The notes under the pieces are model-generated. The model was not told where the DNA came from. It saw only the letters and a list, made by a program, of their open reading frames with translations, and did not search any database. A stretch of 62,105 bases of DNA, the filler included, from Asterionella formosa (lineage: Eukaryota): NCBI GenBank assembly GCA_002256025.1. It is 4 parts of 4 records of this genome, joined end to end, with 100 filler letters (N's around TTAATTAATTAA, not from the genome) between each part and the next. Parts side by side here need not be neighbours in the genome. Positions count along the whole stretch, not along the records: positions 15,564 to 31,023 come from NKIB01005429.1; 3 more parts are not named here. One strand, written 5' to 3'. The position numbers and the translations under genes are program-made. This document shows, piece after piece, positions 2,495 to 52,676 of the stretch (position 1 is the first letter of the stretch; each line of letters starts with the position of its first letter).

Positions 2495-3742
2495 TTACCA
2501 TAATGACCATTTCCCACGGAGGTTCAAATTGCGAAGTGCTGCTTTACCATTTTCTTGAACACCAGCATTCGATGGGTGATTTCGCAAAGAAGACTCAATA
2601 ACGGGTTTTCCACCAGCATTGGATATCGTCACCCTGTTGTTTTCATTCAAAGCCAAGTTCCAAAGTGCTCCACAACCTTTTTCTTGCACAGTAGCATTGG
2701 AGGAATGAGTCTTCATTGCAGACAGAATCGTAGTAATACCTCCTGCTTCAGCAATCGTCACTTTGTTGTTTTCATTATTATTAGCCAAGTTCCAAAGTGC
2801 TCCACAACCATAGTATTGCACAGTAGCATTGGAGGAATGAGTCTTCATTACAGACAGAATCGTAGTGATACCTCCTGCTGCAGCAATCGTCACTCTGTTG
2901 TTTTCATTAACAGTCAAGTTCTGTAGTAATGCACAATAACACTCTTGCATCTTAGCATTGGAAAAATGAGTCTTCATTGCAGACAGAATCGTAGTGAGGT
3001 TCAAATTTCGAAGTGCTGCTTTACCATTTTCTTGAACACCAGCATTCGATGGGTGATTTCGCAAAGAAGACTCAATAACGGTTTTTCCACCAGCATTGGA
3101 TATCTTCACTCTGTTGTTTTCATTCAAAGCCAAGTTCATAAGTGCTCCACAACCATTTTCTTGCACAGTAGCATTTGAGGAATGAGTCTTCATTGCAGAA
3201 AGAATCGTAGTAATACCTCCTACTTCAGCAATTGTCACCCTGTTCTTGTCATTATTCGCAGCCAAGATCCAAAGTGCTCCACAACCATATTCTTGCACAG
3301 TAGCATTGGAGGAATGAGTCTTCATTGCAGACAGTATCGTAGCAATACCTCCGGCTTCAGCAATCGTCACCCTGTTGTTTTCATTATTATAAGCCAAGTC
3401 CCAAAGGTCTGAAGCATTCCGTTCATTCATTCTCATCTTTGAAAGAATTTTAGCAATCGGAGACGGAATTGAAGTGGTTGGAATTTGGGTTGCTGGCAAA
3501 GAAGGAGACTGCTGAGGCATTGGAGTCACTGGAGCAGCAGCCCCTTGGGTAATATTCATGCGATCGCATTTTGGGCAGCTGTTTCGCACAGTCTTCCAAC
3601 CTCCAAATCTCTTCTTTTTGCGAAGCTGAATGTCTGGATGATAAGGACAGAGTCCATTCCTTACGTACTCTGCTTGTACGCCATGCTCATTCAAAATTGG
3701 AGCGTCATGCTTATGGCGGTCGAATGAAGCACCGAATTCCAT
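2495..3742 (-). CDS. Armadillo-repeat protein with an N-terminal CPxH...CxxC motif (415 aa)
   Basis: Intact ORF with ~42-aa ARM repeats (GCGALWNLA..NENNRVTIAEAGGITTILSAMKTH), a Pro/Ser/Thr linker and N-terminal CPYHPDIQLRKK...WKTVRNSCPKC. Confidence 0.85.
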   Translation of the reverse strand: MEFGASFDRHKHDAPILNEHGVQAEYVRNGLCPYHPDIQLRKKKRFGGWKTVRNSCPKCDRMNITQGAAAPVTPMPQQSPSLPATQIPTTSIPSPIAKILSKMRMNERNASDLWDLAYNNENNRVTIAEAGGIATILSAMKTHSSNATVQEYGCGALWILAANNDKNRVTIAEVGGITTILSAMKTHSSNATVQENGCGALMNLALNENNRVKISNAGGKTVIESSLRNHPSNAGVQENGKAALRNLNLTTILSAMKTHFSNAKMQECYCALLQNLTVNENNRVTIAAAGGITTILSVMKTHSSNATVQYYGCGALWNLANNNENNKVTIAEAGGITTILSAMKTHSSNATVQEKGCGALWNLALNENNRVTISNAGGKPVIESSLRNHPSNAGVQENGKAALRNLNLRGKWSLW

Positions 3743-4899
3743 GGTGGTTGATTTATGAAAGAACGCTTTACTTTTCGTGGTGTGTTTTGATCGTGCTTCT
3801 TTTGGAGACCTTTACATGCTTTGATTTTCCCGATGATATATATTTCTTTGTCCTACCGGTAGTCGTGTTTGATCTACATACATAATTCTTGAGTTCTTCC
3901 ACTTTTTCTCGTGGAATTCTACAGTATATGAAAGATCTAAATTCGTTCAGTCATTCCTATCCTGGAATTTTTGTCCAACGTGATTACAATTATATTCTGG
4001 ATATACCGTATCTATACTGGTACCACGTACAGGTAGTATAGCTATACCAACATCTACATATCATTGTGCTACCTGGTACGTAGTAACAACAATACGATTG
4101 CTGGACTACATACTGGTATGTAGACAATTCGATTCGATTACCGGTAGGGGGAATGATAAAAGGGTTTCTATACATATACCTATGGGCATATATGTAAACA
4201 TATTATTCATTACTTACTATGTACCTACTACAAGACCTTCTTTCCAACGACTAAATAACAATATATTTTTTCTTTCTTCCCATGCTCTGGGTTATATCCA
4301 CTTTCTAAGTAATTTAATGTATAGAGATGAAAGGACCTTAGCTATGTGGCATATATAGGAAATGGAACAAAAATTGTCTGTCACACAGATCATCTACCGG
4401 TAATTTTTTTAATAATTATAATTATGAAAATACTACTTACAGAATGGATCTTGTAGGAAAACGTTTCATGACTGATGAGGACATCCACCTGGTACATAAT
4501 AATCGGTAGGATGTTGCAGAAGGTGGAAGTATACTGGCATTTATGTATATTATATGATAGCAGAGGTAATTAAATCAATATAAAGAGTAAATAACCCCGA
4601 GGGTCATTTTAGCTCCCAGGTACAGTATTCTGCCAAGTAAAATTCCGGAAATGATTCAGAATTTTTCCCTTTCGACTCGGACCGACAAACTGTTGGTACA
4701 ATGTCAGTGTACAGACAAAGTGAAAGTGAGAAGCGAAGACTTGCTTTTACTTTTGAGCAGGGTAAATAATACCGTAGACCTCTTCATATCTTCTCCACGC
4801 ATATAAATAACTAGAGGTTATTATTATATTCAAACCACGCGTCAGACTTCATTTTATGTGGCAAGTCTGGACGTGTTAAAATAAACAACCCTCACCTCT

Positions 4900-12669: not shown

Positions 12670-13620
12670 GCAGTTGGGTTAAGACACAAAACTCGACAAA
12701 AGCACTACTTTGTAGATGTTCATGAAAAGCGAGACACTTGGCCTATCGCCCACCAGCCAGTCTATACTGCAAAAATGCAAGAAGCACAAGTTGAATGCCC
12801 ATTTATGGATTCAAGTTTCAGTAGTGCAACAATGTAAAATATTAGAAACCGGAAGTAACATTTGATCTAATTACGGTTTTAATTTTAATAGTATTGATCA
12901 TTGAGAGGAAGCAATGGTGGAAGAATGCCAAACGGGCGGGGGGAAACAACACAGAGGAGCCTAATTTTTCTCCCCAATGATCCCAGACCCTCTTGGATGT
13001 TACTTGCTACAGAAAATGGAGAACAGCCGACATGATCTGTTGATTGTTGCTTTATGGTGCCACTGACCAAAACCTCCAGAAATCTCAATGAGTTGCTTGT
13101 TTCTTGACTTGAGAATGCAAAAGGGATCGAAACCAGTGGAAAAATCAAACTAAAAATGCTCTGCAAACATCGGGACAATTGTGAAAGAGAAATGAAGGTT
13201 CTTGGGAGGAGAGGTAAAGGTATAATTGCTTCTGGTCTTGCGGGAACAAGAATAGATTGACCCAAACAATGTTGACAAATAATTACCTACGGGAAAAGGA
13301 AGCAATGATTTCAGCATCATCAATCTAAACACAAGCCCGCGCCACCTGATGTCTTCAATATAGCTACCTCGACTTCATCAATGAAGAAGTCAATGGGTGG
13401 AGCATGTGAGGAAAATAGGGGTTGAGGTTTTCTTGACGCTAACGTGGACCTGCTTGGCTGAACTCCTTGCAGATGAAGGCATTGAGTAACCTGGGCCTGT
13501 GAAGCCAAAGGATAAAGAAAAATCTACGACAAGGGTGGTGAGATAGTGTTTAGGAGGGGGGAGCAAAAGTTAAAATAGCTGAACGCATTTGACACTTGTA
13601 TAGACAATAGATGGTGGCAT
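12670..13620 (+). pseudogene. Decayed IS630/Tc1-like DDE transposase
   Basis: Pieces read across frameshifts: 'RQKHYFVDVHEKRDT' (YxDGHE-type motif), 'RGKG...IDPNNVDK', 'DFINEE', 'IGVEVFLT..AELLADEGIE'. Confidence 0.6.
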
Positions 13621-13820: not shown

Positions 13821-15463
13821 TGTGGCGAAAAAGCGCAGAACAGATCAAGAGATTTTGAACGAATATTGCAGTGCAGTGTGGGCAAGTGGGTGAACATACC
13901 GTGTCATACGGTACAGGGTACCAACTAGCCGTTAGAGTGCTTTAGCGATAGTACAGCGTGCAACAAGCTTGGAGGAGCAAATGCGCTGGAACGGCGTAGG
14001 TATATATATCTTAAAGACTATGTTTTTCAACCTTTATCTTTCTTTCGTTGAGCACCACGTAAGTTGTTCTGCCGACCACACAAGCGTATTTATTCGGCTT
14101 ATCAGACCCACCGATCTACCGATTACCACTTGAGTTATCTTTGAATCGGAGAAGAGCGTACAGTGCGAGCGATTAGGAGCGTCGAATTCGAACCATCGAG
14201 ACAAGGCGTCCGGCGTCATGTGTTCGTAACGAATTTTTCATATACAGTATGTAGTGTCACGTGTGCGTACCGAATTTGGATGATGACGATCATTCGCAGG
14301 CATCGGTGACCGTGTGCACTCGAGTCATACCGACAGGTATCCACAGACGACCAGCGAGCAATAGCGATTGTTGCCGGAGTTGAACTGATCACTCAACGAA
14401 GGCATTGGCGAAACGGTGCTGCCTGCACACAAGTACTATTCGTTACAGCGGGAATCCACTGACGACATGCGTTTGCGTTTGCGAATTACTACCATTCTCT
14501 TTTCCCAGCAAATCTACTCATTATCATGGCGAATAACTTGGTCGGAGTCGCCCACGTTCTGTTGGCAATCGGTTTTGAGGTCGCTGTCGAACGTACAAAT
14601 ATCATGGCAGCAGGTATTAGCGAGTTTGAGGATTTCCGTTATCTAGTCGAAAAGGACATTTGTGACATGGCAGACGAATTTGGGAAGCGTAGCGTGGCAA
14701 ACGGAAAAATTGTCTTTGGACTTGGACGCACAAAGAAATTGACAGGTGTTATGCATTGGGTCCAGGATTACAATCGAGTTAACGACGTTCCGGACCACAA
14801 CGATTTCAATGTTGAGATTCTGTATCAATCGTTGAGCCTTGCGCAGATCAGGAAGTCCGACATAGATCTTGTGGCTACTAATTCCAAGGCTGCCGATCCG
14901 GGAAAATTTAAAGATGAGAGGAAGTGGCCTAAGTGGGAAAAGGCCTTTATCAACTACTTGGCTGTCATTCCTGGCGTTAGCGGCATACCGTTGTCTTATG
15001 TGGTAAGAGAAGCGGAGGATCCCAAAGCTGAGGCCGATTATGGCTCATTCATCGAGCGCATGATCCATTGCACCCCCCTTAACGGTCAGTATTACATTGC
15101 GGATGCGAGATGTGTGCATACATTGTTACTTGGTTTTCTACAGGGCGAACAGACAGAAAATTGGATTCGTTCCATCTCTCGTTATCAGGACGGTCGTAGG
15201 GACATGGTCGCGTTGAGGCGGCACTACGCTGGCGAAGGAAATTCCACACGTAGGATTGCCGACGCCAAGAAGATTCAATCATCCCTCCACTACAAGACAG
15301 AACGTGCGTTACCTTTTAACAAGTTCTTGGATTCAATACAACGTATGTTCACGATCTTCGAAGAAGAGAACGAGCCTTTGTCCGAAAGAGCGAAAGTAGA
15401 CGAGCTATTGTCCAAAGTGCAGAGCTCCGGCTTATCTGCCGCAGTCGCCCAACTCAGATACCA
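13821..15463 (+). mobile_element. 5' part of a Ty1/Copia (CoDi-like) LTR retrotransposon, cut by the scaffold end
   Basis: Gag ORF with a long leader. A candidate TG...CA LTR at ~13821-14028 cannot be confirmed because no second LTR is present. Confidence 0.6.
14526..15463 (+). CDS. Copia-type Gag (partial)
   Basis: Open frame running into the gap, with PGKFKDERKWPKWEKAFINYLAVIPGVSGIPLSYVVRE and DGRRDMVALRRHYAGEG, typical of diatom Copia gag. Confidence 0.8.
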
Positions 15464-15563
15464 NNNNNNNNNNNNNNNNNNNNNNNNNNNNNNNNNNNNN
15501 NNNNNNNTTAATTAATTAANNNNNNNNNNNNNNNNNNNNNNNNNNNNNNNNNNNNNNNNNNNN
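15464..15563. other. Artificial scaffold spacer
   Basis: N44-TTAATTAATTAA-N44, giving stops in all six frames. Confidence 0.97.
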
Positions 15564-16199
15564 GAACAACCTAAACTAGATTAGTAAACTCACAATAAGA
15601 ATATAGAAACGGAAAGAGAAACGAACGTCTCTATCTATAGTCTTCTTTGTCTAACGATATAGATCTATACAAAAAGGTAATACTTTAACATATGTGAACG
15701 ATATAATTCAACATTTCAGGTCTCGTAAAAATAATACCGAGTCTACAGAGATAATATTATAACGTGTTCAAAGTAAGCGTTAAAGCATAGCTTAAACCAT
15801 GCATGGCTGTTTTTAGTACCACGTACATATGTAGACTAGATGACTGCCAGTACCGGTAGAATATCCGTTAAGCATCATTACATACATGACCGGAGCAAAA
15901 ACTTGCCACCAACATCAAATGTATCGATATCATCGTTCGTCCGACGAAAAATGGACGATGCGATTACATGAATAGTACCTCGAGAAGACAAGCAATCCAA
16001 CGATCAACCGCATCCGTTAGGCAAAGAATCCCTACTGGCGTCATCGCGGAACTGATTTCGCTTCAAAACGGTCATGATGGACAACGATTGGCATGGTGAA
16101 AGGTGAATTGCCGGAGTCCACTTTTCAGGAGACGAACAAAAACGAGGTGAATTCTAGATGTAGATTATTTGAATTTTTATAGTATATAAAATGGTTTCC

Positions 16200-16669
16200 T
16201 TAAGTAGACCCCTTGCCGATTTCGGCAATCCCAGGGCTTGAAAACCGAGGGGCAATTGGTGTCTGTTGTCTTGCCAAAATGCGAACATATGAAATATACA
16301 AAATATATTTTAATGATGGGCAATATCGGACCTTTGGCAATTTTCGAGGTGAAGATAAGAAATATCCAAAATATATTTTATATGATGGGCAATAGTAGGC
16401 TAAAATTGACATTAATGCTATATTTTTGGGCAGTAGGAAAGCGAATGACGCGACGATAGCTAGAGCGGGAATTGCCTCAACAATACCCTTCTCGGCGGCT
16501 ACTTGCCTTCTCGTATACATGTGTACTCGGCTGGGATGGCACTCGTAGTGTGACCTTCTCTCAGCGCCGGGGGCGCCACTCGTACAGTCAACCTACTCGC
16601 GCCACCCAGCCTCGAAGATATGTACACTCGCAGGCAAGAGACCACCTCGGGCGTGTATTGCCTTCAGCA
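16200..16669. mobile_element. Non-autonomous repeat ending in a CTCG-periodic hairpin (copy 1)
   Basis: Homologous to 22903-23377, sharing gatttcggcaat, aaatatccaaaata and tatgatgggcaat motifs and the terminal hairpin. Confidence 0.65.
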
Positions 16670-16774
16670 CTACTCTTACCCTGTTGTTTTGGTACCAGGT
16701 ACCAGGTACCAGGTACCAGGTACTCAATGATCCGCTGCTTACAACATCTGTGCTAGCATTATTGTAAAGGGATC

Positions 16775-17530
16775 ATGTTGTCCTCCGCTGTTCGTTCCGC
16801 TGCTGTGCGCAACAAGGCCTCTCTTCATGCTAGTATTGCCCGTCGATGCATGTCGGGTACATACAAGTCGCAAACCTCTGCTGTGAGTCCATTGTCAACA
16901 GAATCAGGGCATTCTTTCTTTATCGCATACAATTGAGTCGAAGTAATCATTTTTGACGAGTTGAGGCTCACAATAATCGTTCTTCCTTCTCTATCATAGT
17001 TGAACCGTTTGGATAATGTTGATGAGGTTTTGTCGGGAGGCGCCGGCGTCCCTGTCGCGGATAATATTGAGTACGCAATTTCCAGAGTGGATGACTTGGT
17101 CAATTGGGCCCGCAAAGGTTCTCTCTGGCCCATGACGTTTGGATTGGCGTGCTGTGCTGTCGAAATGATGCATGCGGCTGCGTCTCGATATGATATGGAA
17201 CGGTTCGGTATGGTGTTTCGGGCATCTCCTCGGCAATCAGATGTCATGATTGTGGCTGGTACACTCACTAATAAGATGGCCCCCGCTCTCCGGAAGGTGT
17301 ACGATCAAATGCCTGAACCCCGCTGGGTGGTGTCGATGGGATCTTGTGCCAATGGAGGAGGATATTACCATTATTCATACTCGGTGGTGCGAGGATGCGA
17401 TCGAATTGTCCCTGTAGATATTTATGTTCCTGGTTGTCCTCCAACTGCCGAAGCTTTATTGTTTGGATTGCTTCAACTGCAAAAGAAGATCAAGGGTAAC
17501 AAGTCATTGCTCCTACGAATGAGAAAGTAA
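16775..17530 (+). CDS. NDUFS7: Mitochondrial complex I subunit NDUFS7/PSST (NuoB); exons 16775-16882 and 17000-17530
   Basis: Transit-peptide-like exon 1, phase-0 GT(gagt)...AG intron, and motifs [49 protein letters not shown]. Confidence 0.96.
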
Positions 17531-19007
17531 CGAGTATTATACAATACAGCTGGACGAGTTGGCATGTGATGTCAACTCCCTAAGAATTTGTCGAAACATT
17601 TTATATATTCATTTTTAAAAATCAAGTGCTCGCTGCCTATTATTCTTGACCGATTTTTGTTTGGCTTTTATTAGTCACAATAGATTCCCCCCTCTATATT
17701 TAGCACGACTTGTGCCTGTTATCATAGTCAGTATAGCCAAGGAACTGGTCTGCTGTAAAGGCAATTCTGGTTTTGACCACTGTACTCAACCCATATTTGG
17801 GGGAGGATACAATTGAAAAATAGTTTTTAAGAACAGGTGCCATGATGTATCTTACAAAGGACCCTTCAGCATCCTCTTAACAACTGATCAGCAGGGACAA
17901 GTAAAGCAACAAACATGTTATTCTAGCTATCAACAGCTGTGGCAATGGAGGAGTGACAGACGCAATTCCCAAATGGATTGTTTGGAGATATACTTTCTAT
18001 CTGCCAATTGCATACAAATTACTAGCTAATGGCCTACTGATCCATCAGCCTATTGATCCATCAGATCATCAAAGTGCCTCAAAACATATAATAATAGCTA
18101 ATCGTTATTTCCTATAGTTTGCTATCAATTACCCTGTTTATGAGGCCATTGACACTACCAAAAGCACCACCATTGTCAATCAATTGATTGATTTAGCATT
18201 GCTAGTGGTTTTCTCATGGTTAATTGTGGTCGAGGGGTGTTTCAATGGCCGATTTTTCCAAAATAAACAAGGAGTAACATAAAGTACTGTAGGTATTTCT
18301 TGAGAGACTCCACTAAAATTTCGGTGAAACTCGAAGAAGAAGTTTTACCTATCGGAAAACCGACTAAAACACCCCGGAAAATCCAAACGTTTGGCTATGG
18401 CGAAGGTTGCATGTGCATATTATTTTTACGACAAATACATAAGCAATGCAAAAGAACATCATGATCCAAAAAAACCCGTTTTGATGCATTCTGCCCATTT
18501 TCGGTATACGTAGACTGCCATACTATCTCATTGGTATCATGATACAATATCTGAAGCATTACATACGACAGCCATCGCATAGATACTATGACGTCTAGTA
18601 TCATCAGTCGGTACTACCATCAAATTAACACTAGTGGGCCGCATTTTCATAACAACAATTCTTGATGGCGGTGACGCGAGGTAACACCACAAGTAACATA
18701 TGGCTGAGCGATGGATGCTCGTCCTCATCAAGACCATCGCAAAAATCGCTACTCCGAAGTTACCAGGGTACCAGGTACAGGTACAGATACTATATCATAT
18801 GTGGAAGCAAGGAAAAGGAACTGATAGCTTAGCATTCTATCATCATCAGAATTCGCATGGTGGCAACAGCGAGACCTGCTTACACAGATCTCTAGTTGCA
18901 AGAAGTCTACTACTCCAAAGTAATTCGTGTCGCTTCGGCACGCAATCAATAACCAAGTTTTGAAGGGTAACGACACAAAAATCGTTCCATAGACAACACG
19001 ACACATA

Positions 19008-19679
19008 ATGCCAGCAGTATCGAAGGACTGCAATGCCTGCGTCAAGAGGAGCTGGTCTACTTTTCGACTTTTCCTTCTACACATGGCATTAGGTTTACAT
19101 CAAGGCGATTCTTTTACGGTACGGGAAAATATGATTCATCCAGAAACAGCACTTTTCGGTGCATCTAAAATTCAACGAGTCGGTCCCTCCGATGACGACA
19201 CACCATTTGTTCTTAATGGAAACAAACCGGAACAAGCAGAAGAGCCACTGGTAATCCCTGCTCATTCATTGGACATATTATTGTCGCCATCCTCATCTGT
19301 GGATATGAATCAGATGGGACCCACAGCTCTGGCATATCTTGGCGATGTCGTCTTTGAACTCTTTGTCCGCTCGCGCAAACTCTGGCCGACGAGGCGAACG
19401 GATGATCTTCAATTACAGGTCGTCGCACTTGTCAACGCCGAACATCAAAGTAAACTGTTGGCGTCACTTTTAGAAAATTTTGAGTTGACGCCGGCAGAAC
19501 TCCAAATATTATCCAGAGGCCGAAACGCATCCACATCGAAATCCAACAATCGAAAGAACCCAAAGGCCTATCAAGATTCTACCGCTATTGAAGCGTTGAT
19601 TGGATATTTGTATATTACAGATAAGGCAAGATTAGAAGTTTTGTTCAATTGGATTTCTGTTTTTCTGGAGCGCGTCTAA
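19008..19679 (+). CDS. Mini-ribonuclease III (MrnC-like), probably organelle-targeted
   Basis: ALAYLGDVVFEL, RGRNA and YQDSTAIEALIGYLY; no dsRBD; N-terminal extension. Confidence 0.88.
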   Translation: MPAVSKDCNACVKRSWSTFRLFLLHMALGLHQGDSFTVRENMIHPETALFGASKIQRVGPSDDDTPFVLNGNKPEQAEEPLVIPAHSLDILLSPSSSVDMNQMGPTALAYLGDVVFELFVRSRKLWPTRRTDDLQLQVVALVNAEHQSKLLASLLENFELTPAELQILSRGRNASTSKSNNRKNPKAYQDSTAIEALIGYLYITDKARLEVLFNWISVFLERV

Positions 19680-19838
19680 GGAGGAGCCTCCAATATTGCT
19701 TTCGAATTCTACCTCATTGTGCCGATTATTAATTTAAATTAGTAATATCCGACGTTAATTGATGTCAATGTACGAATACAATTTTTCTACCCATTGTCAA
19801 CAATTTTTAAAACACAGCCATTCCAAGCGAGGCGACCT

Positions 19839-20951
19839 TCAAAAAACGAAATTGGCGGCAAACCAATCCAAAAGATTTATTTGGATATCCTCCGACTTTT
19901 TCTCGGACATTGTAATGTCACCCCAAGGTTCAGAAAAGATTTGATTGCCAAATGGCACAGTTCGCTTGTCGCGCGCATTCATCCATGTCGTAACAGCAGC
20001 AGCGACTGCTTTGGGAGCTTCATGGTTTGGACAGTGTCCCACTCGATCCAACTCCAGATATCGCTTGGCAATATCTTTGGGCAATTTCTCTAAAATTTTC
20101 TTGGCAATGGTTGGCGTGCACCATGGATCCTTTGCACCAAAAATAACTAAACAATCGCAAGGCAATTCACTCACTTGCGTGAACCAATCCTTGCCAGTGG
20201 CCGGAGGCGACCACATGATACTGGAAAATGCAACGTGTGCACCCTTGCCTAGGGTACATGATTGAATTTGTTGAGGCAATTCTCCTTCAAAGGCCATTCG
20301 GTGAAAATACGCATTGTCCAAATACTTTTCAATTGTCGCCAAGTCTCGAATCCAATCAAAAAGCTTGCGACCAATTATCTTGGGTAGTTTCGGGGAAGGC
20401 AAACGCCCTGACCATCCAGGCAAATTCAATCCCCATACCGGCGTTGCATTGAGTAATACTAGACTAGATAATGGTATTCCTCGATGCGCCAAGGCGACGG
20501 CCAAATGCCCCCCTACGGAATTCCCCACTACGTGCGGTGAGGCCTTGACGACGACGTGAATGAACTCTTCCAGTTGTTCCAACCACGTGTCAGCGGAATA
20601 TTGAAGGCCTTGCTCTTGAGGGCTGAGGCCATCTTGGCAGTCTACGGGCCATGATTTCCCTTGACCTAGATAATCAACAGCATAAATGGTACAGCTCGAA
20701 TCCTGCTCTATTAATTCGGATATGAGTCGGTGTTGATGAAAGGATCCAACGCCAAAGCCATTGAGTAGTAAAATAGTTTTCTTGTCAATTCTGGTGGTCT
20801 CATCAGAATTAGCCGATTGAGCGTAATCAAAAGCGATAGAGTGGCCTCGCCAAGTCCAGGTTTTCTGCTGGATCGTGATGGATGAGGTGGCTTGGGCAAA
20901 TACGAACATCAAGAACGTGAAGTCTAAAATGAAATGCATGATAGGAAGCAT
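19839..20951 (-). CDS. Alpha/beta-fold hydrolase with signal peptide
   Basis: LLLNGFGVG, VDYLGQGKS, nucleophile elbow GNSVGG, GAKDPW, GHCPNHEAP. Confidence 0.88.
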   Translation of the reverse strand: MLPIMHFILDFTFLMFVFAQATSSITIQQKTWTWRGHSIAFDYAQSANSDETTRIDKKTILLLNGFGVGSFHQHRLISELIEQDSSCTIYAVDYLGQGKSWPVDCQDGLSPQEQGLQYSADTWLEQLEEFIHVVVKASPHVVGNSVGGHLAVALAHRGIPLSSLVLLNATPVWGLNLPGWSGRLPSPKLPKIIGRKLFDWIRDLATIEKYLDNAYFHRMAFEGELPQQIQSCTLGKGAHVAFSSIMWSPPATGKDWFTQVSELPCDCLVIFGAKDPWCTPTIAKKILEKLPKDIAKRYLELDRVGHCPNHEAPKAVAAAVTTWMNARDKRTVPFGNQIFSEPWGDITMSEKKSEDIQINLLDWFAANFVF

Positions 20952-21563
20952 AGTATTTTTTGATCAGCATATAGCTAAAACGATGTTAATGACAAAAAGA
21001 GTCAAATAGTGACGAAGACAATAGCAAACAGGCATACACTGTTTAGTCACCAACATTTGCATTTAAAATAAAAGTGAAGCAATTTTACCAAGACGAGTGA
21101 TCCTGAAATGGAAAACGAGATCAACGGAGAGGAATGGTGTCAACATCAGCATACTATGGTACCATACCTGGTACCAGGTACTAGTATCGGTTGACTATCA
21201 TACTATCATACTGGTACCAAGTATACTAGGTAACCGGGACTTTTCCCAAACAGGGTTGAAAAGAGAAAAGTATTCGTAAATTCAACTGCCCATTGGCATT
21301 TGCACCACCGATTGCACCACTATTACTTAGAGAAACCAAAAATGCACCATCAGACTACGCATATATAAAATCCGTGCTTTCTGCCTGCACTACCGTATTG
21401 ATATTTGCTACAGAGGATCACGATCAGATTCATCTTGCTGATCATCCACCATGACCAGAGGAGCAGTGAAAAGTGAACCATGCACATGGCGTATGATGCT
21501 GCTGATGCATCATGCAGCTATTCAGCATCATCCTTCCTCCTGCGTGGAGGATTGCTGGAGGTA

Positions 21564-23377
21564 AGACTCCTCCTGAGTAGGGTCTTACCTAGGCAATTCA
21601 CAAACTAGCTATCGGCGCGCTTTTCGCCACTACATTGCCCTTTCTGGTAACATTGAAATCCTATTTTATATAGTTTGTATGTTGGATGCGAACTAGCCAA
21701 TTGCCCATCATATAAAACATATATTGTAGATTTCACATGTACAGTTTTTGGATTACTCAATCCTGCAATTGCCCATCATATAAAACATATTTTGGATATT
21801 TCATCTGCTCCGTTTTTCGACTGCCAAACTACCTTCAATATTTTCATTGGCCCCTAGATTTTATTGCCGAAATCGACTGCCGTTTATTTAAGGGAAATGG
21901 ATTACTGATATCTACAGCCCCTCAATTGACTGCTGTTTACTTAAGGAAAATGGACTGCCGAAATTGGAAGGGAGTAGGATGAGCTATGTGAAGGCACAAC
22001 TTGATGGTTTTCTTTAAAGTGTCCATGGCAATTTCACTTTTTTCATCCCTGCTATCATCCAGCATGCTCCGAGGTATAACAACTCTGTTCGCTCATTGAC
22101 GTCTATAACATCGACTCTTAATCAAATGGATCTGGGTGGTTGTTGGATAATTCGACTTTTTATGGGATTCATATTGTCGTATTGTGCTTGCTTCGTCACA
22201 GTGGCGCCAAAATTTCGTTTCCCCTTTCTGTTGATTTCCGATAGCCTTTCCGGTCAACTCCCACACCCACAGTTCTCATCGAAAAGCAAGATGATAGCTA
22301 GGGTGGGGATTGCTTAAATTTTGGTTTCTTAAACTAATTTCTTTATTTAGGGGGAAATATGGGGCACATTGGATTTTTCGGCAGTCAATTTTAGGTTTGA
22401 GCAGTGGGACCATCGAGCAACGTCAGGAGTAGTATTTTTCATGGGAAAAAGTTTAGACACATCAAAAATGTATGGACCACCGAACATACCGGTACCAGTA
22501 TATGCATGAAAAATAGTCACACAAGAATGATTGGAACAAGCATCGAAAATTCGACACGATGTTGTTAAGCAACCAAAGTATGAAACGGAAATTGAAAGGT
22601 ACGACGTGAAAATGACAAGCAGGGAGTAAAATGAAAAGTGAAAAAAATGGGTCAGCGGAAAAATCGTGTTAAATTTTGTCAATGAATATTCATTAACAAT
22701 TGTCAACTCACACTTTTTTGTCGTTGCAGCCAACGAAATTTCAAAAATTTTCAGATCGGGCCTGGAGGAGCAGAAACCGATGCCTGAATGGATTAAGTGG
22801 CAATGCTTGTTTCTGATTTGATTTGGACTTGTGGTTGTGGAGGTGTTGGAGGAGCAACAGCTTGATGGCAGAAGTTTCTTGGTGCTGGCGGTGCAGAATT
22901 CTGGCAGTCGATTTCGGCAATAAAATCTAGGGGCCAATGAAAATATTGAAGGTAGTTTGGCAGTCGAAAAACGGAGCAGATGAAATATCCAAAATATCTT
23001 TTATATCATGGGCAGAGAGTAATCCAAAAACTGTACATATGAAATCTTCAATATATGTTTTATATGATGGGCAATTGGCTAGTTCGCATCCAACATACAA
23101 ACTATATAAAATAGGATTTCAATGTTACCAGAAAGGGCAATGTAGTGGCGACAAGCGCGCCGATTGCTAGTTTGTGAATTGCCTAGGTAAGACCCTACTC
23201 GGGAGGAGTCTGCCTACTCGTAATCTTGTGTGCTCGGCTTGGGAGGCCCTCGCAGGTTGACCTTCTCGCAGCGCCGGGGGCGCCACTCGTTCGGTCAACC
23301 TACTCGCGCCTCCCAAGCCTCGAACACAAGAATACTCGCAGGCAGTCTCCACCCTCGGTCGTGTCCTACCTTCAGCA
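21564..23377. mobile_element. Fold-back-like element with ~310-bp inverted arms (21564-21881 / 22903-23211) and a terminal hairpin on the right
   Basis: The arms are near-perfect reverse complements with one small indel. No credible protein between them; 22320-22590 resembles 30590-30810. Confidence 0.8.
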
Positions 23378-23536
23378 GTCTACATACGTGAAATGTAAAG
23401 TGCCACGTGCGTAGAATAGATACCTGCCGATATGTGATTACAAGCTGAAGCAACCTCCTTGACCTTCGATTTGTGATTGTTGTTTGCACATCGTGTTGTA
23501 AGAAGTGATAGCGGTAGTCTCCCACCGGAATACTAA

Positions 23537-25048
23537 ATGAGCAAGTGCCCAGTTGATCCCCGCAACATCAAAGAGTTCTTCTACACCGCAAATATGAAGC
23601 TTGATCTCCCATGGACGCCTTATTACTCACAATCAGGGGAGACCTTGACGGCGAGTCCTGACGACTCCCTCGCCTATTGGGCCCTAGCAGCGACGATAGC
23701 CTTTACAGTGCTGGTGTATTCCTTCGAAGGCCATTTGGATTCTCGCCAGAAGGAAAGCTACCTCGGAAAGATGTTTCCGAAGGCGCTCGAAGCGACGGTG
23801 GCTGCGATCGATGCGGAGCGCAAGCAAAACGGAAAGGAAGCCGCAGATGCGGATGCGGAGCCGCCATCGAACAAAGAGCTCCTTCCGCAACTGAAAGACA
23901 AGTTCGAGTCGTCTCAATCGTACGGGTTGGATAAAATCAACTTCGGCATGATTAGTTCCACCTTTGATACAACTGAAAGCATTGTCTATTTGATCATGGG
24001 CTTCTTCCCCTTCGTTTGGGACATGTCTGCTACTATTGGCCAGCGCTTTGGATGGACTCAACAGGACAATGAAATTAAGATCTCACTCATCTTCCTCGCC
24101 CTCACCACCATTATGGGAACAATAACCCAGCTTCCTTTTGAATTGTATTCGACGTTTCGCATCGAAAAGAAGCATGGATTCAACAAGCAAACCCTGGGTC
24201 TCTTCTTCTCCGACAAGCTCAAGTCGTTGCTTCTCACTGCTGCTATTGGAGGTCCCTTTGTCGCGCTTCTACTTACCATAATCAAGTCGGGTGGACCATA
24301 CTTTTACCTATACGTATGGGCGTTTATGTTTGTCTTCTCAGTCATTATGATGACGATTGTGCCAGTCCTCATTATGCCTCTCTTCAATAAGTACGAACCC
24401 CTCCCGGAGGGTTCCTTGAAAACTGCCATTTACAAACTAGCCGATACCTTGCACTATCCGCTCACCAAACTATTTGTCATGGATGGTAGTAAGCGAAGCT
24501 CACATTCCAATGCCTTCATGTTTGGCTTTGGCAAGAACAAGCGAATTGTTTTGTTCGATACGCTCATGACGCAAGTACACGAAGACGAGATTTTGGCGAT
24601 TCTCGGCCATGAACTTGGACATTGGAAGCTTGGGCATACCTTGTCGAACTTTCTCATTACCCAGCTATACTTTGGTGCGGCCTTTTATATCTTCTCCTTA
24701 TGTTACACATCGGCTGATCTGTATCGAGCCTTTGGCTTTGACTCCGCAGAAACCAACACACCTACGATCATTGCCCTCTTACTCTTCTTTCAAACCATCT
24801 GGTCGCCTGTGGACAAAGTCTTGAGTTTTGTATTGACCATGTTTTCCCGACACAATGAATTTGCAGCAGATGCCTTTAGTGTGGAATTAGGCATGTCCCA
24901 GAAGTTGCAGTCGGGTCTTTGCAAGATTCATTTGGAGAACTTAGGAGCCATGTGTCCAGATCCATGGTATAGTATGTATCATTATTCACATCCACCCTTG
25001 GTAGAACGCTTGAGTGCTATGATGAAAATGGATAAAAAGAACAAATAG
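23537..25048 (+). CDS. STE24: CAAX prenyl protease 1 (peptidase M48A)
   Basis: Multi-TM ORF with TFRIEKKHGFNKQT, DGSKRSSHSNA, HELGH zinc motif, EFAADAF and YHYSHPPLVERL. Confidence 0.96.
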   Translation: MSKCPVDPRNIKEFFYTANMKLDLPWTPYYSQSGETLTASPDDSLAYWALAATIAFTVLVYSFEGHLDSRQKESYLGKMFPKALEATVAAIDAERKQNGKEAADADAEPPSNKELLPQLKDKFESSQSYGLDKINFGMISSTFDTTESIVYLIMGFFPFVWDMSATIGQRFGWTQQDNEIKISLIFLALTTIMGTITQLPFELYSTFRIEKKHGFNKQTLGLFFSDKLKSLLLTAAIGGPFVALLLTIIKSGGPYFYLYVWAFMFVFSVIMMTIVPVLIMPLFNKYEPLPEGSLKTAIYKLADTLHYPLTKLFVMDGSKRSSHSNAFMFGFGKNKRIVLFDTLMTQVHEDEILAILGHELGHWKLGHTLSNFLITQLYFGAAFYIFSLCYTSADLYRAFGFDSAETNTPTIIALLLFFQTIWSPVDKVLSFVLTMFSRHNEFAADAFSVELGMSQKLQSGLCKIHLENLGAMCPDPWYSMYHYSHPPLVERLSAMMKMDKKNK

Positions 25049-25208
25049 TCACAATTGAATCAGAAAAAGTCATTGTGGTGTAGTAGGGTATAGCTGCCGG
25101 TATTCATGCTCTAGTTTTCGGTAGACTAGATGCATTGTTTAATTTATAATTCGAGGCTCTGCGTCGCCAATACGTTTAGCCTAGACTTCGATACCCCTCG
25201 GGGCTGTT

Positions 25209-26318
25209 TCACGAGAAAAACACTTCATTGTCCTGTCCTCGATACAGCATTGTTGGCTTCGTCCGAAGTACATCCATCCCGAGCACACAAGCTGGCGCAT
25301 CGACACCTAATGTCGAAGTCATAGCGACTAGCCCTGGAATATCACCGACGTAAATCTGACCACTTCCAAAGTCCACTGCTCCATCTGCCAAACTCACTGC
25401 CACCTTATCGACACTCTTGACCAATTGAATTCTCTCGCCCCCAGGCGGCCCAGCCAACAACAAAACATCACCCCGTGATGCAGCGTTGGCTGTCTTCACT
25501 GCATTCACCATGTTACTGAATGGATTTGAACCACCAGAGTCAGTGACAACTCTTCCTTTCACTCCCGCCAATTTGGCAGCTACAGCATTCACAACAGTTA
25601 TAGGTGATCCAGTGTCCAATAAGGCCACCATGTCTACACCATTGATGCGCACTATAACAGTAGGAAGCAACGTGATAGGGAGCGGTATGATGGGTACCTT
25701 GACCTTGTCAGTCGTGTCTTGACGTGTGCTGTAAAAAGTAATAGATCCAGCCCACTCGAATTCAACACCGCCTTGAAAGCAATCAAGAAATGCTTTGCTC
25801 AAGAGTCCGGCAGCGGCGGGACTGGGAAGAGCAGATGCAGTCAGACCTTGCATAAAATTTACTTCTCCGAGCCCTTCAAGTTGACAGTCACCAAGCAAAA
25901 AAGTATTTGCACCAGGCATGGCACCAGTTGCGGAGAGTCCAGGTGGAGCTTGGCCGACTACGTCAAGTCTTAATTCTTGGGCTACTTGAGAATTTAATGT
26001 ATTGGTATTGGCTGCCGTGTCGAGAACGAAGTCCAAAGAAACACCAGTTGCATTGCGTTCTTTCATGGCAGTAGTTGCCAAATGGGGAAAGCGGAGCCCA
26101 ACGGTAGGGTAGGGACCCACGTATTTGAGTGGGGCCCGGACAGAATAAGATGGATCTTCAGTTCCAACAGAAGGAGTCTCGGCCTGAAAACCGAAAGTAG
26201 AGTAAATGGTAGTACGAAATGCTGTCGGTCGCTGATGTGCCGGGACAAAGGCATAAGCAATGGAGAAGAAGACCAGAACCAACAGTGCATGTAGTTGAAA
26301 GGTCGTTTTCGCTGACAT
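25209..26318 (-). CDS. Two-lobed retropepsin-like aspartyl protease, likely plastid-targeted
   Basis: Signal peptide ending AYA-FVP; FVLDTAA and ALLDTGS motifs; AGLLS and VLGMD flap-closing motifs. Confidence 0.75.
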   Translation of the reverse strand: MSAKTTFQLHALLVLVFFSIAYAFVPAHQRPTAFRTTIYSTFGFQAETPSVGTEDPSYSVRAPLKYVGPYPTVGLRFPHLATTAMKERNATGVSLDFVLDTAANTNTLNSQVAQELRLDVVGQAPPGLSATGAMPGANTFLLGDCQLEGLGEVNFMQGLTASALPSPAAAGLLSKAFLDCFQGGVEFEWAGSITFYSTRQDTTDKVKVPIIPLPITLLPTVIVRINGVDMVALLDTGSPITVVNAVAAKLAGVKGRVVTDSGGSNPFSNMVNAVKTANAASRGDVLLLAGPPGGERIQLVKSVDKVAVSLADGAVDFGSGQIYVGDIPGLVAMTSTLGVDAPACVLGMDVLRTKPTMLYRGQDNEVFFS

Positions 26319-28016
26319 GACGGCTCTATACGATTATGATGTATTTATGGTTTAAAATCTTTCGATGTGAATTCCTTAGTGCATATTATGAACCTAACCT
26401 GGATTTATTGTTCATATCAGCTTAACCAATCCCATGTGATGTGTTGCAGGACGTTTTACATTGATGATGGCCCCCTTGACTCAGCCATCTATGAAGACTC
26501 GCTAACAAATCGTCAACACTTTTTCTTACATAGTAAGAATATCATTGCATCATCACTCATTCCGATTCACGACCCACGTGGTGACGAGGAGTCTTGAAAT
26601 GAATAGTTACCGGTATGTAGCACCTGGTACCCGGTACCTGGTACCAGTACCTGGTAGTACCCCACCAGGTATTATGAATCCTGAACATACCGTTAGCTAG
26701 TAAGTAATTCTTACCGGTGCGTACCTCTACCGGTAGGTAAATTCTACAAGAGTACTGGTACCGGGTAATTCTATGTGGTGGCATTCCGACCTGGTACCGG
26801 TACATGTGAAATCATAAATAGAGTCTATGAATGATAGGTATGTAAAAGGAACAATTCTAATCCTCCCCCGCATAATTAACACTCCAAGAACCTCGTAAAG
26901 CGATCATCATTATATTTCTTTTCTTTCGCATCCTCATCTGTAATTTAAGCATTCGAAATTCATTGACTCACTACATCCAACCCCGATGCATCCTGTGTTG
27001 TTTGATGCAAGTGTGACTAAGTACTCTTATACTTGGAGTACTCTGTTTCCCCTTCGACCTGAGTTCTATCCTTGCACTGTCGATGAATATTAGTTTAGAC
27101 TGGGCATGTGATAATAATAGCTTGTACGGCCTCTTCTTATGTATTACAGTATCTGGTGATGCCATCGTCAAAACTGACCACGTCGCTCTGATTGCTTTTG
27201 GGTGACGATGACAGGGGAGTAATCATGATATTGTTGCGAACTCAAAATTGCAGCCTGGCGTGGTTTGACTAGTCGGACTAATGATGCGAAGTGAAATGTG
27301 CCACGCTGTCATCCTTTCATTTGCAGTGGATACCAGCAATGCGCAGGTACATATTTATATTGTGCTACTAGTCTACCGTAATAATATATCCCTGACAAGT
27401 ACTGTACGTCCTACACAGATACATCGTTTACATAAACAGTCAAATCTGCTGATGTCATCATCACAATTTGCCACATGGGTGGAACAGCAATGGTAGATGC
27501 CTTCATGTTTTGTATGAACATATCATAAAAATAATACATGGATTAATATTCCTTGTTGATGAATCCGACGAAACACATTGTTTCTTTCAAGATACATCGT
27601 AAATACCGTAAGTAGTCACGAAAGAAAGGTGGAAATCTATTGACGTCCTTGCATAAAACTGCATGCTTTCAATTGAAAAAGCAAACAATGCGGCTGCAAC
27701 CGATAAAAATAAATGCTTTACCATGGAGAAAGTCGAATGAATCCAATTCTGCGATGAAATTGGCTTCCACCATAGCTAAATTTATTTATCGTTTTTTCGC
27801 TCGTGGGTCGAGTCAGAATACCGGTAACAACCGTTATCGTATTTGAAGTGTTCTTTTACTTTTTGACACGACGTGAAAATTTCGAATGTAGAAATCAGCA
27901 AAGTCCTGTTTGTGCAAGATTGATCTTGTTTGCTAACTCATGCTTCTATTACTCCCCTGCTGATTTATTTGTTGCAGGTATATGCATTCATTCAGTTGTC
28001 ACCAACAAATTACATC

Positions 28017-28646
28017 ATGTCAGCTTACGCCCTTCATTGCTTTCCTCCAATTCCCTCCTTGGACTACGAGCAAAACCAGTATGGCGCTTACAGCTTTGAG
28101 ATCTCCCCTGAAATAACTCAATCGATACACCACATCTCCAATCGTTTTGCCGACTCTATGGGCGAAATAGTTGTTAAGGTCACACTTGCCAAAATTGATT
28201 TTGCCCGACTTTGTAGGACAGGTTTGCATCCAGTCCCTCAACTGGCCAACCAAGGGGCGCAACTTACGAGCCACGAAGAAGCCATGGAGCTTGATTTAGA
28301 CATTCGCATGAATGGGCGGTGCTACAGTGCCTCCAGGAGCTTGTCTAGAATAGTGCAGTTGAGGCGAGATATACAACGAGAGTACAAGACCCAAGTCGTT
28401 CCGGAACTGCCCACAACGCTTCAACAAGGTCATCGAGGCTTTGCGATGTTGAAGGAGTTGTGCGCGAGGTATGCACCGGAAATGCACGAATGGTTTGCAA
28501 GAGTGACCTTGGATTTTCACGAGAGCTCAGCCTTGAACTCATTTCTGTGGGAACCTCTGGAACAGCAGCAACCACTGACAACATTGAATGGATCAAAGTC
28601 ATTTTCGACCTTGGGGAGTATCCCAGAACATGATGGGGACTCGTGA
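28017..28646 (+). CDS. Hypothetical protein (possibly PX-like C-terminal half)
   Basis: Long open frame with coding-like composition. YSASRSLSRIVQLRRDI...VPELP...LNSFLWEP loosely recalls PX domains. Start uncertain. Confidence 0.55.
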   Translation: MSAYALHCFPPIPSLDYEQNQYGAYSFEISPEITQSIHHISNRFADSMGEIVVKVTLAKIDFARLCRTGLHPVPQLANQGAQLTSHEEAMELDLDIRMNGRCYSASRSLSRIVQLRRDIQREYKTQVVPELPTTLQQGHRGFAMLKELCARYAPEMHEWFARVTLDFHESSALNSFLWEPLEQQQPLTTLNGSKSFSTLGSIPEHDGDS

Positions 28647-28868
28647 GAATGATATGCATTATTTGTACTGCTTGATACGATGCTACTGACTAGGATACTA
28701 GATCGGATACTAGGATGATGATGTAGATTAATGAAAAGAATGGTTTAGATGAGCCACTTACATAACTAAACAATGTCCTAAATCTTCAAATCTAGACGAC
28801 CTGCCAGACTGCCAGCTGGCCATCATTGAAAAGAAATAGTATTTATGAATTGTATATCTATTGATACA

Positions 28869-29213
28869 GGAAATGGCTCAGTCGGTTGAGCGAATTGCCT
28901 TTGATGTGTGGTTCAATTCCTGAAATTTTTGAGAAGCATTTGTTGGGTTCGACTCACACTCCTTACTGTCCTGCACAGTCTTGTCTGGTGTGCAAGAAAT
29001 AGTGGGTTTGCCCCCCCCCCCTACAAGCAGCTTGTGCCGCCTTCCTAGGCAGTCGGAGTTTCCCCTGATGCTGTGGCTAAGACAATCACCTATTGCAAAA
29101 GGTGGTTGGGGACTCAATTACACTAACAAAACTAGGGAAACACAGGTCTTGTTGGCAGGTAGCACAATGAATACTTGCCTTGAAAGAGGGGAATATGAAT
29201 GGGCTATAAAACA
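28869..29213 (+). mobile_element. tRNA-derived SINE-like repeat, copy A
   Basis: A-box TGGCTCAGTCGG (28874), B-box GGTTCAATTCC (28910), second B-box at 28945; body homologous to 38468-38791. Confidence 0.6.
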
Positions 29214-29730
29214 GATTATCATTTACTATCTATTGATACATTTGATTTGATGTGAGTGATTGCCAATGTCAATGAATTATAATTTCCCCCATCAGTTGGA
29301 AGCAATGAGTAAGATTCGAGTATACCAAGGTTGAATATTTTAGGCATCAGAGAATTTTGATCATGTATAATATGGTTGCTGGTAAAGACTATCTTGATTC
29401 TATGTACTGCAGCAGCATATTTGTATCAAAATGCAACTCAGAACATTCCATTCTTAAAAAGTGCCAATCGAACTTACCATTAGTCATATTCACTCCCAAT
29501 GGATATATATAATATTTTTGATTTCAATCAAATGCAATAAAACATAATTTTTTGATCTCATGAGTAGGATCACAAGCGGATAGAGTCGAGGATTATGGAG
29601 GGTGACCAATGTGGTAAATGGCAAACTCCTCAGAAAGCAGTTATCCTACCGCAGCGGATACAAGCATCGATTGCGTCAATTCAAACCAGATAAGTTACAA
29701 CCTTGTACATGAACGACAAAACACAGAGTC

Positions 29731-30168
29731 TCACAAAGACTCAGTCTTGCTACTACTTTCCACATTGACATCAACATTTGTCTCCGTCGATTTCTTCATA
29801 CGACCCCGACGACGTTGGCGTCGAGCTTTCTTTTCCTTTGCGGACTCATCATGCCTTTCTTCTATTTCGGCATTAGCAGGTGCGATGTTGTCGTGTAAAA
29901 TACTAGTATGTGATGATTTTGACTTGTGTCTGTTTCGTTCGCTTCGACTCTTTTCGTCGCCATTGTCGGCATCAGCAGGTGCAGCATTGTCATGTTCAAT
30001 ACCTGTGTTCGATGATTTTGACTTATGTCTGCGTCGTTCGCTTCGTCTCTTGTTGTCGCCGCCAACATGGTTGACAGTAGCAGGTGTGGTTGTTGAATCA
30101 GAATCAATCAAGATCTGTAAAACAGTTTCTAGGTCCACAACAGGTGAATCAACTGTGAGCTCGATCAT
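29731..30168 (-). CDS. Low-complexity basic hypothetical protein with an internal repeat
   Basis: Duplicated RSE..RHKSKSS...HDN.APA.A motif; may be a terminal exon or a relic. Confidence 0.35.
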   Translation of the reverse strand: MIELTVDSPVVDLETVLQILIDSDSTTTPATVNHVGGDNKRRSERRRHKSKSSNTGIEHDNAAPADADNGDEKSRSERNRHKSKSSHTSILHDNIAPANAEIEERHDESAKEKKARRQRRRGRMKKSTETNVDVNVESSSKTESL

Positions 30169-30589
30169 TTTATGAGATTTCCTGCCTTTTAGCCAACCAC
30201 TCTGAATGTAAGAATATCAAACGACCTTTATAAAAAGCCAGTGGCTGTATCTAAATATTATGCCGTGTGATAAGGTGTCGATCAATTGCAATGACAAAAA
30301 ACGAAGCAAGGTATTATCTAGCAGTGTCATCGATAACTTGCATATTGTGTTGTTATCTAAATGAGAGTGGTTGGTACCGGTATGCAAATTGCAGCAAATG
30401 TGGTATGATTCTTGGTTTTCTACTACGTACCATGGTACTGGTACCAGGTCAGAGGGTACCATGTCGATGCATCCTATGATGTATGATGACGAGGCGCAGA
30501 TGGTCCCAAAGAAGGCGCAAAACGAGCAGCTGAACACCAGCAATTCCCGCTCCAGCTATCGTCTTGGCATTCGGGTACTTCTAAGTAAT

Positions 30590-30810
30590 TTTTAGTCTCT
30601 AAGTAATTTCTTAAGTAATTTTTATTTAAGGGCAATATGGGGCACATCGAATTTTTCGGCAATAAAATTGCCGATTTTAGCATGACAACCAAAATAACGG
30701 TAATATGCGTAGAGATGGTACAGCAAGCGTGAAACACACGAGAATGATTGTAACATGCAACATCAACGAAAATTGAACATGATGTTTGGAGCAACCAAAG
30801 TATGAAATGC
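30590..30810 (+). repeat. Fragment related to the interior of the 21564-23377 element
   Basis: aatatggggcacat...ttttcggca and agaatgattg...aaaatt...accaaagtatgaaa are shared with 22320-22590. Confidence 0.65.
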
Positions 30811-31023
30811 AATGTAATAAGTAGCATCAAATGAGAAATAGAAAAAATTGCTTTGGGTTAGAAATGAAATAAAAAATAAGAGTTCCAATGGAGACATATG
30901 CATTGTGAATCATTGTAGTACTACTTACACACCAGGCAACATTGACTTTCCATCACCACACAATCGAAGACCGAAATAAGAAGGGAAAAGCTGAACCCAA
31001 TCTTGACCTACATCGTTATGTAG

Positions 31024-31123
31024 NNNNNNNNNNNNNNNNNNNNNNNNNNNNNNNNNNNNNNNNNNNNTTAATTAATTAANNNNNNNNNNNNNNNNNNNNN
31101 NNNNNNNNNNNNNNNNNNNNNNN
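31024..31123. other. Artificial scaffold spacer
   Basis: N44-TTAATTAATTAA-N44. Confidence 0.97.
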
Positions 31124-46575: not shown

Positions 46576-46675
46576 NNNNNNNNNNNNNNNNNNNNNNNNN
46601 NNNNNNNNNNNNNNNNNNNTTAATTAATTAANNNNNNNNNNNNNNNNNNNNNNNNNNNNNNNNNNNNNNNNNNNN
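46576..46675. other. Artificial scaffold spacer
   Basis: N44-TTAATTAATTAA-N44. Confidence 0.97.
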
Positions 46676-50130: not shown

Positions 50131-50133
50131 TTA

Positions 50134-52514: not shown

Positions 52515-52676
52515 TTTTAATGTCTGCATATGATGCTCCATACATGTGCCGTACAAACCATACTGGCGCAGCCACCAGATTAGGTACATGTGTGAGTGCT
52601 AACAACGGTGTACTCGAAACAGCAATAGAATAGTCATTGTAGTTCACCTTTATTCACAACAAGGCTCCCCTCAACA
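52515..52676 (+). repeat. 5' LTR (162 bp)
   Basis: Matches 57812-57978; starts TT (TG in the 3' copy) and ends CA. Confidence 0.92.

Follow-up and report, generated by a model that had tools for sequence, protein, structure and literature searches.

The long ladder-like hairpin found twice in this DNA is the fixed terminus (the last ~200 bp) of a DNA transposon family, and members of that family some 4.25 kb in length share both ends with gene-less ones and encode a Cre-fold tyrosine recombinase of Crypton type. The preliminary description of the window (the whole 62,105-nt stretch of Asterionella formosa DNA analyzed here) did not contain the identification of the hairpin as a transposon end, and its reading of the copy at 16473 as a second, selected hairpin at a promoter proves to be ordinary, this copy being one among very many transposon ends. 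We propose, tentatively and at slightly less than an even chance of being right, that this tyrosine-recombinase transposon of a eukaryote travels in the form of one folded strand and multiplies by replication. In this proposal the joined ends and an internal complement would form the recombination site, sheared G.A blocks would pick the strand, and a single strand would be exchanged over 1-2 bp of homology. Within that model the gene-less copy at 16473 would be a decaying passenger of a recombinase-transposon system, a proposition that we regard as evenly balanced.

Searches of the genome itself return 612 and 463 candidates, of which 40 each were scored, and all aligned copies match through ...CCTTCAG-N-A and diverge beyond it, giving sharp ends. 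An end motif occurs 495 times in the assembly as an exact match. Full gene-less copies start with R-GCAAT and measure ~2.12 kb in subfamily A, to which the 16473 copy belongs, and ~2.43 kb in subfamily B, that of the 23180 copy; window features are collected in Table 1. In three DNA runs, contig depth summed over one copy exceeds the depth of its flank ~900-2500-fold, a figure that is not a copy number and that we read as "very many". Contigs of RNA run X15 also span the element, which does not demonstrate expression. Pfam at curated cut-offs finds no coding signal in 110 frames from four gene-less copies, and tblastn finds no recombinase remnant in the same four. The element has no true terminal inverted repeat, an inverted copy of the left end being present internally, and likeness between the two ends is weak in subfamily A (0-3 of 2000 shuffles) and absent in B. 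An apparent LINE-like "5-prime truncation", or one-ended rolling circle, was rejected as an artefact of searching with the hairpin: in the first 100 of the 495 end-motif matches left ends are no less common, and the break points do not lie at RGCA. The family also inserts into itself, with one hot spot near position 126 of subfamily B (TTTTCGG^CAGT; at least three independent A-type insertions, at L047, L178/L206 and L208) and a second at the hairpin foot (L036, L094, L199, L223).

Table 1. Transposon features and neighboring host genes in the window.
Feature	Position	Strand	Remarks
Subfamily-A non-autonomous remnant	15690..16669	+	Corresponds to 1142-2121 of the full 2.12-kb copy, 94.8% identity; left part absent
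Subterminal repeats ending GGGCAAT	16282..16393	+	Common to A and B; possible protein-binding sites, judged from sequence
Inverted internal copy of far (left) end	16442..16475	+	~30 nt; overlaps hairpin base at TGC
Putative internal half of folded recombination site	16471..16484	-	Arm ATTG, 6-nt spacer, arm CAAT
Terminal hairpin	16473..16669	-	~200 nt; five opposed CGAG/CGAG blocks (CTCG on +), GC-rich tip; best fold on -
Right end	16657..16669	+	Arm ATTG 16657-60, element spacer CCTTCAG 16661-67, host-derived NA 16668-69; crossover beside G 16667
NADH dehydrogenase 20-kDa subunit gene, NDUFS7-type (host)	16775..17530	+	Oxidored_q6 match; ATG at 16775 predicted from sequence
Rearranged subfamily-B copy	21559..23377	+	Inverted block 21559-22314, internal deletion; hairpin 23180-23377
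CAAX prenyl protease gene, STE24-type (host)	23537..25048	+	Peptidase_M48 match
Third copy, left end	30539..31009	+	Subfamily A, positions 1-471; broken off by assembly gap

Loose contig ends lie at both element termini, at the same two bases, in all four public runs used (runs with small shares were left out): on L214, a locus with a full A copy, they fall at 1465/1466 and 3584 in each run. Moreover, run X4 contains a 525-nt contig that joins L214:1343-1468 to 3585-3983 with a single AGCA and without the element. This empty site, deduced from piece lengths and equal depth, means that the L214 insertion is polymorphic and was made without duplication. The presence/absence comparison suggested in the preliminary description for defining the ends and any target-site duplication is answered by an empty site in another sample, which fixes the ends and reveals no duplication. 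Paired copies likewise show 0-1 extra base in 15 of 15 cases. The target preference is T-N5-RG^NA-R-T, with the crossover beside an invariant G. When this G is numbered 0, left junctions have R at -1, variable bases from -5 to -2, and T at -7 in 37 of 48 non-nested cases; a fixed 6-bp TGCTGA core is not supported, only RG being invariant at this junction. Of 101 right junctions, 93 keep the element's spacer CCTTCAG, with a variable base and then A next to it, and the spacer is also kept in 38 of the 43 right junctions that were retrieved without it in the query; none of the other eight of the 101 resembles host spacer. At left junctions the element spacer is absent, host sequence standing in its place, in 52 of 54 cases, and the remaining two resemble the element spacer (junctions with near-identical flanks were merged before counting).

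Paralogous pre-insertion sites, which could be compared at 13 of 94 right junctions and 10 of 52 left ones, locate the exchange within this motif. At seven right junctions the target reads GG and the junction shows the element's AG, and L165 has the element's C where 8 of 10 paralogues read GGTA. At L236 the junction has GA and 6 of 10 paralogues read AGGA, so that the G at +1 comes from the target; L047 is consistent with AG^GC, L040 and L221 are ambiguous, and L031 is a rearrangement. These comparisons place the exchange between -1 and +1 and reduce the apparent 4-bp repeat to RG, the host origin of the +1 base being indicated by two to three direct cases together with base frequencies.

The recombinase gene lies on the CGAG strand between the same two ends and reads inward from the hairpin end. 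At L079, a locus carrying the left-end motif, both ends are present together with a 304-aa frame on the CGAG strand that contains HGRR..SRH..Y. Used as a query, this recombinase piece gives 61 genome matches, 30 loci of which represent 26 distinct places, and the left end is found 0.8-1.1 kb behind the gene in 12 of the 19 places with enough flank. Left end, gene, and full hairpin follow one another across 4.25 kb at L200, and the hairpin end also lies upstream of the gene in L208, L203, L194, L199, and L206; L200, L208, and L203 are complete or near-complete parents, the latter two with collapsed hairpins, and L198 is a B-type parent. An intron separates the catalytic halves of the recombinase, with a GT donor in 8 of 10 copies examined. 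The R-H-R-Y residues of tyrosine recombinases are present in long members, spread over two exons and several broken copies, and the window copy is gene-less. Every copy seen in the assembly is broken somewhere, none being an intact autonomous one, and intact 433-aa recombinase exons are present in other samples. Cis linkage of ends and enzyme is no proof that the enzyme moves the gene-less copies, although we infer that it mobilizes them in trans.

The upstream exon matches DUF3504 at E ~1e-3, which is under the curated cut-off, and has 252 relatives at E<=0.001; Atlas neighbors of the recombinase exon are KIAA1958/Ndc10/DUF3435. In several homologues a single chain comprises both halves and the residues R, K, HxxR, H, and Y align, and the predicted fold of a full-length homologue resembles Cre and QRICH1 (E 1e-4, TM by target 0.6). 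Among solved structures, the best match to the recombinase profile is XerA (E 0.0017); the model of the element's own exon alone gives QRICH1 at E 0.0035 and weak Cre rows, with nothing at E<=0.001. Two homologues are named jgi/Psemu1, which we take to be a diatom gene set, and distant homologues P0029, P0076, P0105, P0107, and P0124 lie on metagenome contigs of 2.9-3.7 kb, about the size of a whole element. Loci related to two of the recombinase proteins were not found in viral or prokaryote contigs. A Phage_integrase search of the genome gives three bacterial-looking matches and misses the element's recombinase family, and hence such family searches are insensitive. Bacterial-looking contigs in the assembly (L107, L108, and L109; G000:C14089, C3434, and C3841) carry a gene of XerC type with a GC content of 66% and a fragment of an integron-type integrase.

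The scars fit, as indirect genomic evidence, a single strand exchange with microhomology only at the cut. By analogy with integron attC and CTX phage, bacterial systems to which descriptions of such a mechanism have so far been confined, we give a model in which the substrate is one folded strand and only one exchange takes place as good a chance of being correct as of being wrong. The joined ends consist of arm ATTG, a 7-nt spacer, and arm CAAT, and the hairpin foot is their complement with a 6-nt spacer. The CGAG strand would exit the donor as a single-strand circle, in which the joined ends would pair with this internal complement, so that one strand would yield a double-stranded site for the recombinase. 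This enzyme would swap only the CGAG strand with the target, homology being needed at the 1-2 bases beside the cut, and host replication would finish the insertion. Sheared G.A pairs in the CGAG blocks would hold the CGAG strand folded, the other strand having T.C mismatches, and this difference would set strand and orientation. Cleavage by tyrosine recombinases occurs between arm and spacer, as stated in the available text of PMC4246890, and this position, on the CGAG strand, coincides with the mapped crossover. L110, which has naturally joined ends and may be a tandem dimer, is predicted to fold into a single rod of ~125 bp whose stem contains the junction. If both strands were exchanged between unlike spacers, either end should be able to receive either spacer; a hairpin end with its own spacer and a far end with host spacer are expected of one CGAG-strand exchange followed by replication, as for attC and CTX attP(+). 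Similar scars would also result if both strands were exchanged and repair were strongly biased, or if a cruciform formed on double-stranded DNA, and no single-strand or circular intermediate was observed.

The same element and enzyme might instead employ conventional Crypton chemistry on a double-stranded circle, a possibility that we take seriously while doubting it. The hairpin would then be an accessory. It might form a cruciform or offer an array of binding sites to the recombinase or a helper, it might act as an RNA structure upstream of that gene's transcript, or it might simply have resulted from repeated binding sites in which mismatches keep a perfect palindrome from being cut. A double-stranded circle is the model proposed for Cryptons in the available text of PMC13565253 and PMC3212892, and Starships use a circle according to the part seen of a preprint (bioRxiv 10.64898/2026.09.21.753150); moreover, collapsed hairpins are frequent and the CTCG repeats recur every 16 bp. 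This chemistry leaves unexplained, however, why the spacer is kept at the hairpin end (93/101) and almost never at the far end, how crossover proceeds with 1-2 bp of homology, and why the element has an internal complement of both its ends.

Rolling-circle movement by an HUH enzyme, with the recombinase as cargo, is very unlikely. The element would then be Helitron2/Helentron-like, with an unusually long asymmetric inverted repeat and hairpin, and its layout does resemble the 3'-ATIR followed by a terminal hairpin that is described, together with insertion without duplication, in the accessible parts of PMC3627910 and PMC5148889; the one-strand bias would also be accommodated. On the other hand, the ATIR of the element is ~30 bp long and ~195 bp from the end, compared with 8-15 bp and 20-30 bp for Helitron2, and the hairpin is about ten times longer. 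A tyrosine recombinase rather than RepHel is the sole gene between the ends in A-type and B-type parents alike, and the arms and spacer resemble a recombinase site. In addition, Helitron_like_N has no match in the genome, by a weak search whose control was also silent, and PIF1 has one sub-threshold match, which is an AAA ATPase.

We consider it extremely improbable that the family is a non-autonomous DIRS-like retrotransposon with an internal complementary region that rebuilds the ends after reverse transcription. DIRS1 has the same geometry, in which an internal region complements both ends with a three-base overlap, as well as a tyrosine recombinase and a habit of self-nesting (PMC3266345, PMC7192593, as far as their available text goes). 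Unlike DIRS1, however, the element has no reverse transcriptase/RNase H, no reverse transcriptase frame or motif being found in the four 4.25-kb copies scanned; it retains the recombinase intron with its GT donor (8/10 copies examined), and it has no long or conserved inverted terminal repeat. Furthermore, its complementarity is imperfect by design, and the fixed mismatches between the ends and the internal complement exclude the copying of one from the other. Two other systems were set aside on the basis of partial sources: Replitrons use a different enzyme and are not detected in diatoms (PMC10288648), and the terminal inverted repeats and target-site duplications of Plavaka do not fit the element (PMC12730594).

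On the basis of its enzyme and scar, the element is a Crypton-type tyrosine-recombinase DNA transposon, the comparison with named Cryptons being made by description. Like the Cryptons (CryptonA/DUF3504, CryptonS) in the accessible text of PMC3212892, PMC13465315, and PMC13565253, it encodes a single tyrosine recombinase and no reverse transcriptase, inserts without duplicating its target, shows what looks like a short direct repeat at its ends, and has a DUF3504-like domain. It differs from those descriptions in its 200-nt mismatch-ladder hairpin, its internal inverted far-end copy, its RG^NA target in place of TATGG, its gene-less derivatives in very high copy number, and its one-sided spacer inheritance; nor does it have the TATGG termini and 5-6 bp repeats of CryptonS. 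Full-text searches returned no description of a Crypton with such a hairpin, and supplements or Repbase could hold such ends. With integron attC/IntI, as presented in the available text of PMC7439510, PMC4792948, and PMC5027507, the element shares a tyrosine recombinase, an imperfect palindrome whose structure is conserved, unpaired features that select the strand, microhomology confined to the crossover, and, presumptively, a single strand exchange. In contrast to attC, it is eukaryotic and self-mobile, its hairpin is 200 rather than 53-152 nt long and has symmetric G.A blocks instead of extrahelical bases, and its site is complete only when the ends are joined. CTX attP(+)/XerCD, as described in the part seen of PMC4246890, similarly has two inverted, singly imperfect sites that fold on one strand into a usable site, with homology only beside the first cut and completion by replication, although the element has its own recombinase and a degenerate genome-wide target instead of dif.

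Within the window, the CTCG rungs of the 16473 hairpin stand at 16491, 16510, 16526, 16542, 16579, 16596, 16611, 16627, and 16646, with CTCT at 16558, all exactly where the preliminary description had placed them. The ladder pattern has two matches in the window, the 16473 and 23180 copies, and none in 100 shuffles. RNA folding gives z-scores of -3.6 on the plus and -7.0 on the minus strand for 16465-16675, and -9.35 on the plus strand for 23172-23385; with DNA parameters, the corresponding z-scores are -1.0 (+) and -2.9 (-) for the 16473 copy, and -6.1 (+) and -9.4 (-) for the 23180 copy. In all 51 copies examined (the end finder skipped 8 of 59), RNA and DNA parameters alike predict a better fold for the minus (CGAG) strand, a bias that is partly built in because the folding programs favor G.A and G.T. 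Modeled folding thus makes the reverse strand the better-folding one, a point absent from the preliminary description. Each rung on that strand is CGAG opposite CGAG, a tandem G.A, and CGAG blocks in DNA hairpins are reported from NMR to be stable and to consist of C:G, two sheared G:A, and G:C pairs (PMC10085684, available text). A looser ladder pattern gives 48 loci that appear by eye to be tandem repeats or chance matches, with no ladder hairpin among them, and a ladder scan of metagenomes gives two loci, the true copy L110 and an unrelated repeat (L111). The apex pattern has no matches in viral contigs, and a pattern built to leave out subfamilies A and B did not find a third subfamily. 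The hairpin tip also occurs in four tandem copies at 37-bp spacing (G000:C5708:13293-13428), and contigs of run X1 switch strand within the hairpin at L214:3431-3485, which points to inversion of the tip in one or more genomic copies.

The hairpins at 16473 and 23180 are copies of two subfamilies, and the compensation between them is a subfamily trait. CTCG columns differ between A and B at 0 of 40 positions and other columns at 38 of 162 (p=1.6e-4). In stems 1-3, 11 of 39 gap-free pair positions have changed on both sides, four of these being Watson-Crick in both subfamilies and several others G.T wobbles on the CGAG strand. The earlier claim that pairing is kept as the spacers change holds for two A-T/T-A swaps in stem 2, which are real differences between subfamilies, but the 3' arm quoted for it, aagatatgtaca, contains three private changes that weaken pairing. 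Altogether the window copy has seven private changes, mostly pair-breaking and including CTCT, and has the most among the 30 A copies because it was used as the query. Rungs decay at the background rate within A (15/1200 vs 62/4829) and, through CpG loss, above background within B (75/757 vs 152/3074), two duplicate copies having been removed before counting. As a result, selection on structure, as inferred earlier, applies to replicating lineages (0/40 vs 38/162) but not to genomic copies such as that in the window.

Arm-to-arm conversion, which had been raised as a full explanation of the covariation, is seen in one of 30 A copies (L025), where it has turned one rung into a perfect complement. 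Because conversion erases rungs, it cannot explain their conservation, but it might account for some of the compensation in the stem. For collapsed, two-rung hairpins there are 55 exact matches, compared with 85 for intact ones, and the 108-nt skip that characterizes them is present in runs X1 and X2 too. In a poorly resolved tree of 39 of the 51 copies, those with full upstream sequence, collapsed hairpins are scattered (nine changes, at least three of them forced), and six collapsed copies of recombinase type cluster with weak support. Their frequency and scatter indicate that the inner three rungs are fragile and may be dispensable.

Both window hairpins do end, as noted previously, about 110-160 bp upstream of housekeeping ATGs, at 106 bp (16669 to 16775) and 160 bp (23377 to 23537). 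An outward ATG-ORF of 100 codons begins within 300 bp of 17 of 55 hairpin ends versus 315 of 2558 control RGCA sites (12%, p=3e-4), the control being crude and the test one that misses short first exons, including that of NDUFS7. The corresponding count at far ends, 5 of 27, is no different from that at hairpin ends (p=0.29). The suggestion of promoter-targeted insertion or a regulatory role consequently retains a mild enrichment but loses specificity for the hairpin, and promoter proximity fits a mild insertion or survival bias. There is only a slim chance that the hairpin serves the host as a regulatory element or non-coding RNA before housekeeping genes, as its position before the two window genes and the 17 of 55 ends might suggest. 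Such a gene is missing at 38 of the 55 ends, the far end does not differ significantly, and the one insertion tested (L214) is absent in another sample; the private changes in the window copy mostly break pairs, and Rfam gives four matches over 15600-31000, all at E 2-10 and none to the hairpin.

Transposition of a Crypton has never been demonstrated experimentally according to the part seen of a 2026 review (PMC13565253), and the CTX phage was described in 2016 as the only reaction resembling single-strand recombination in integrons (PMC4792948, available text). New here are the empty site, the position of the crossover, and the retention of the spacer on one side only. If the proposed folded-strand mechanism is true, an integron/CTX-like reaction would operate in a nucleus, and the element might be a DNA-transposon counterpart to the internal complementary region of DIRS. 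The family is young, polymorphic, and high in copy number, and its mapped crossover and defined substrate of 130-250 nt make the question testable with oligonucleotides and one protein. A eukaryotic recombinase that is structure-specific and relaxed in its target would be of interest to tool builders as well.

Elsewhere in the window, TTAATTAA occurs in mid-gap at 15464-15563, 31024-31123, and 46576-46675 and is probably a scaffolding linker. A 333-aa frame at 14463-15461 runs into a gap and has no Pfam match at 0.05; it presumably resembles retrotransposon gag. About eight 188-bp units with ~80% identity form an array at 50132-51913, and 125-bp direct repeats 5.3 kb apart flank a strongly C-skewed region at 52517-57938, possibly an LTR-type element. 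Finally, another repeat of ~400 bp is present as two inverted copies, at 12961-13361 and 59239-59646, that are ~93% alike.
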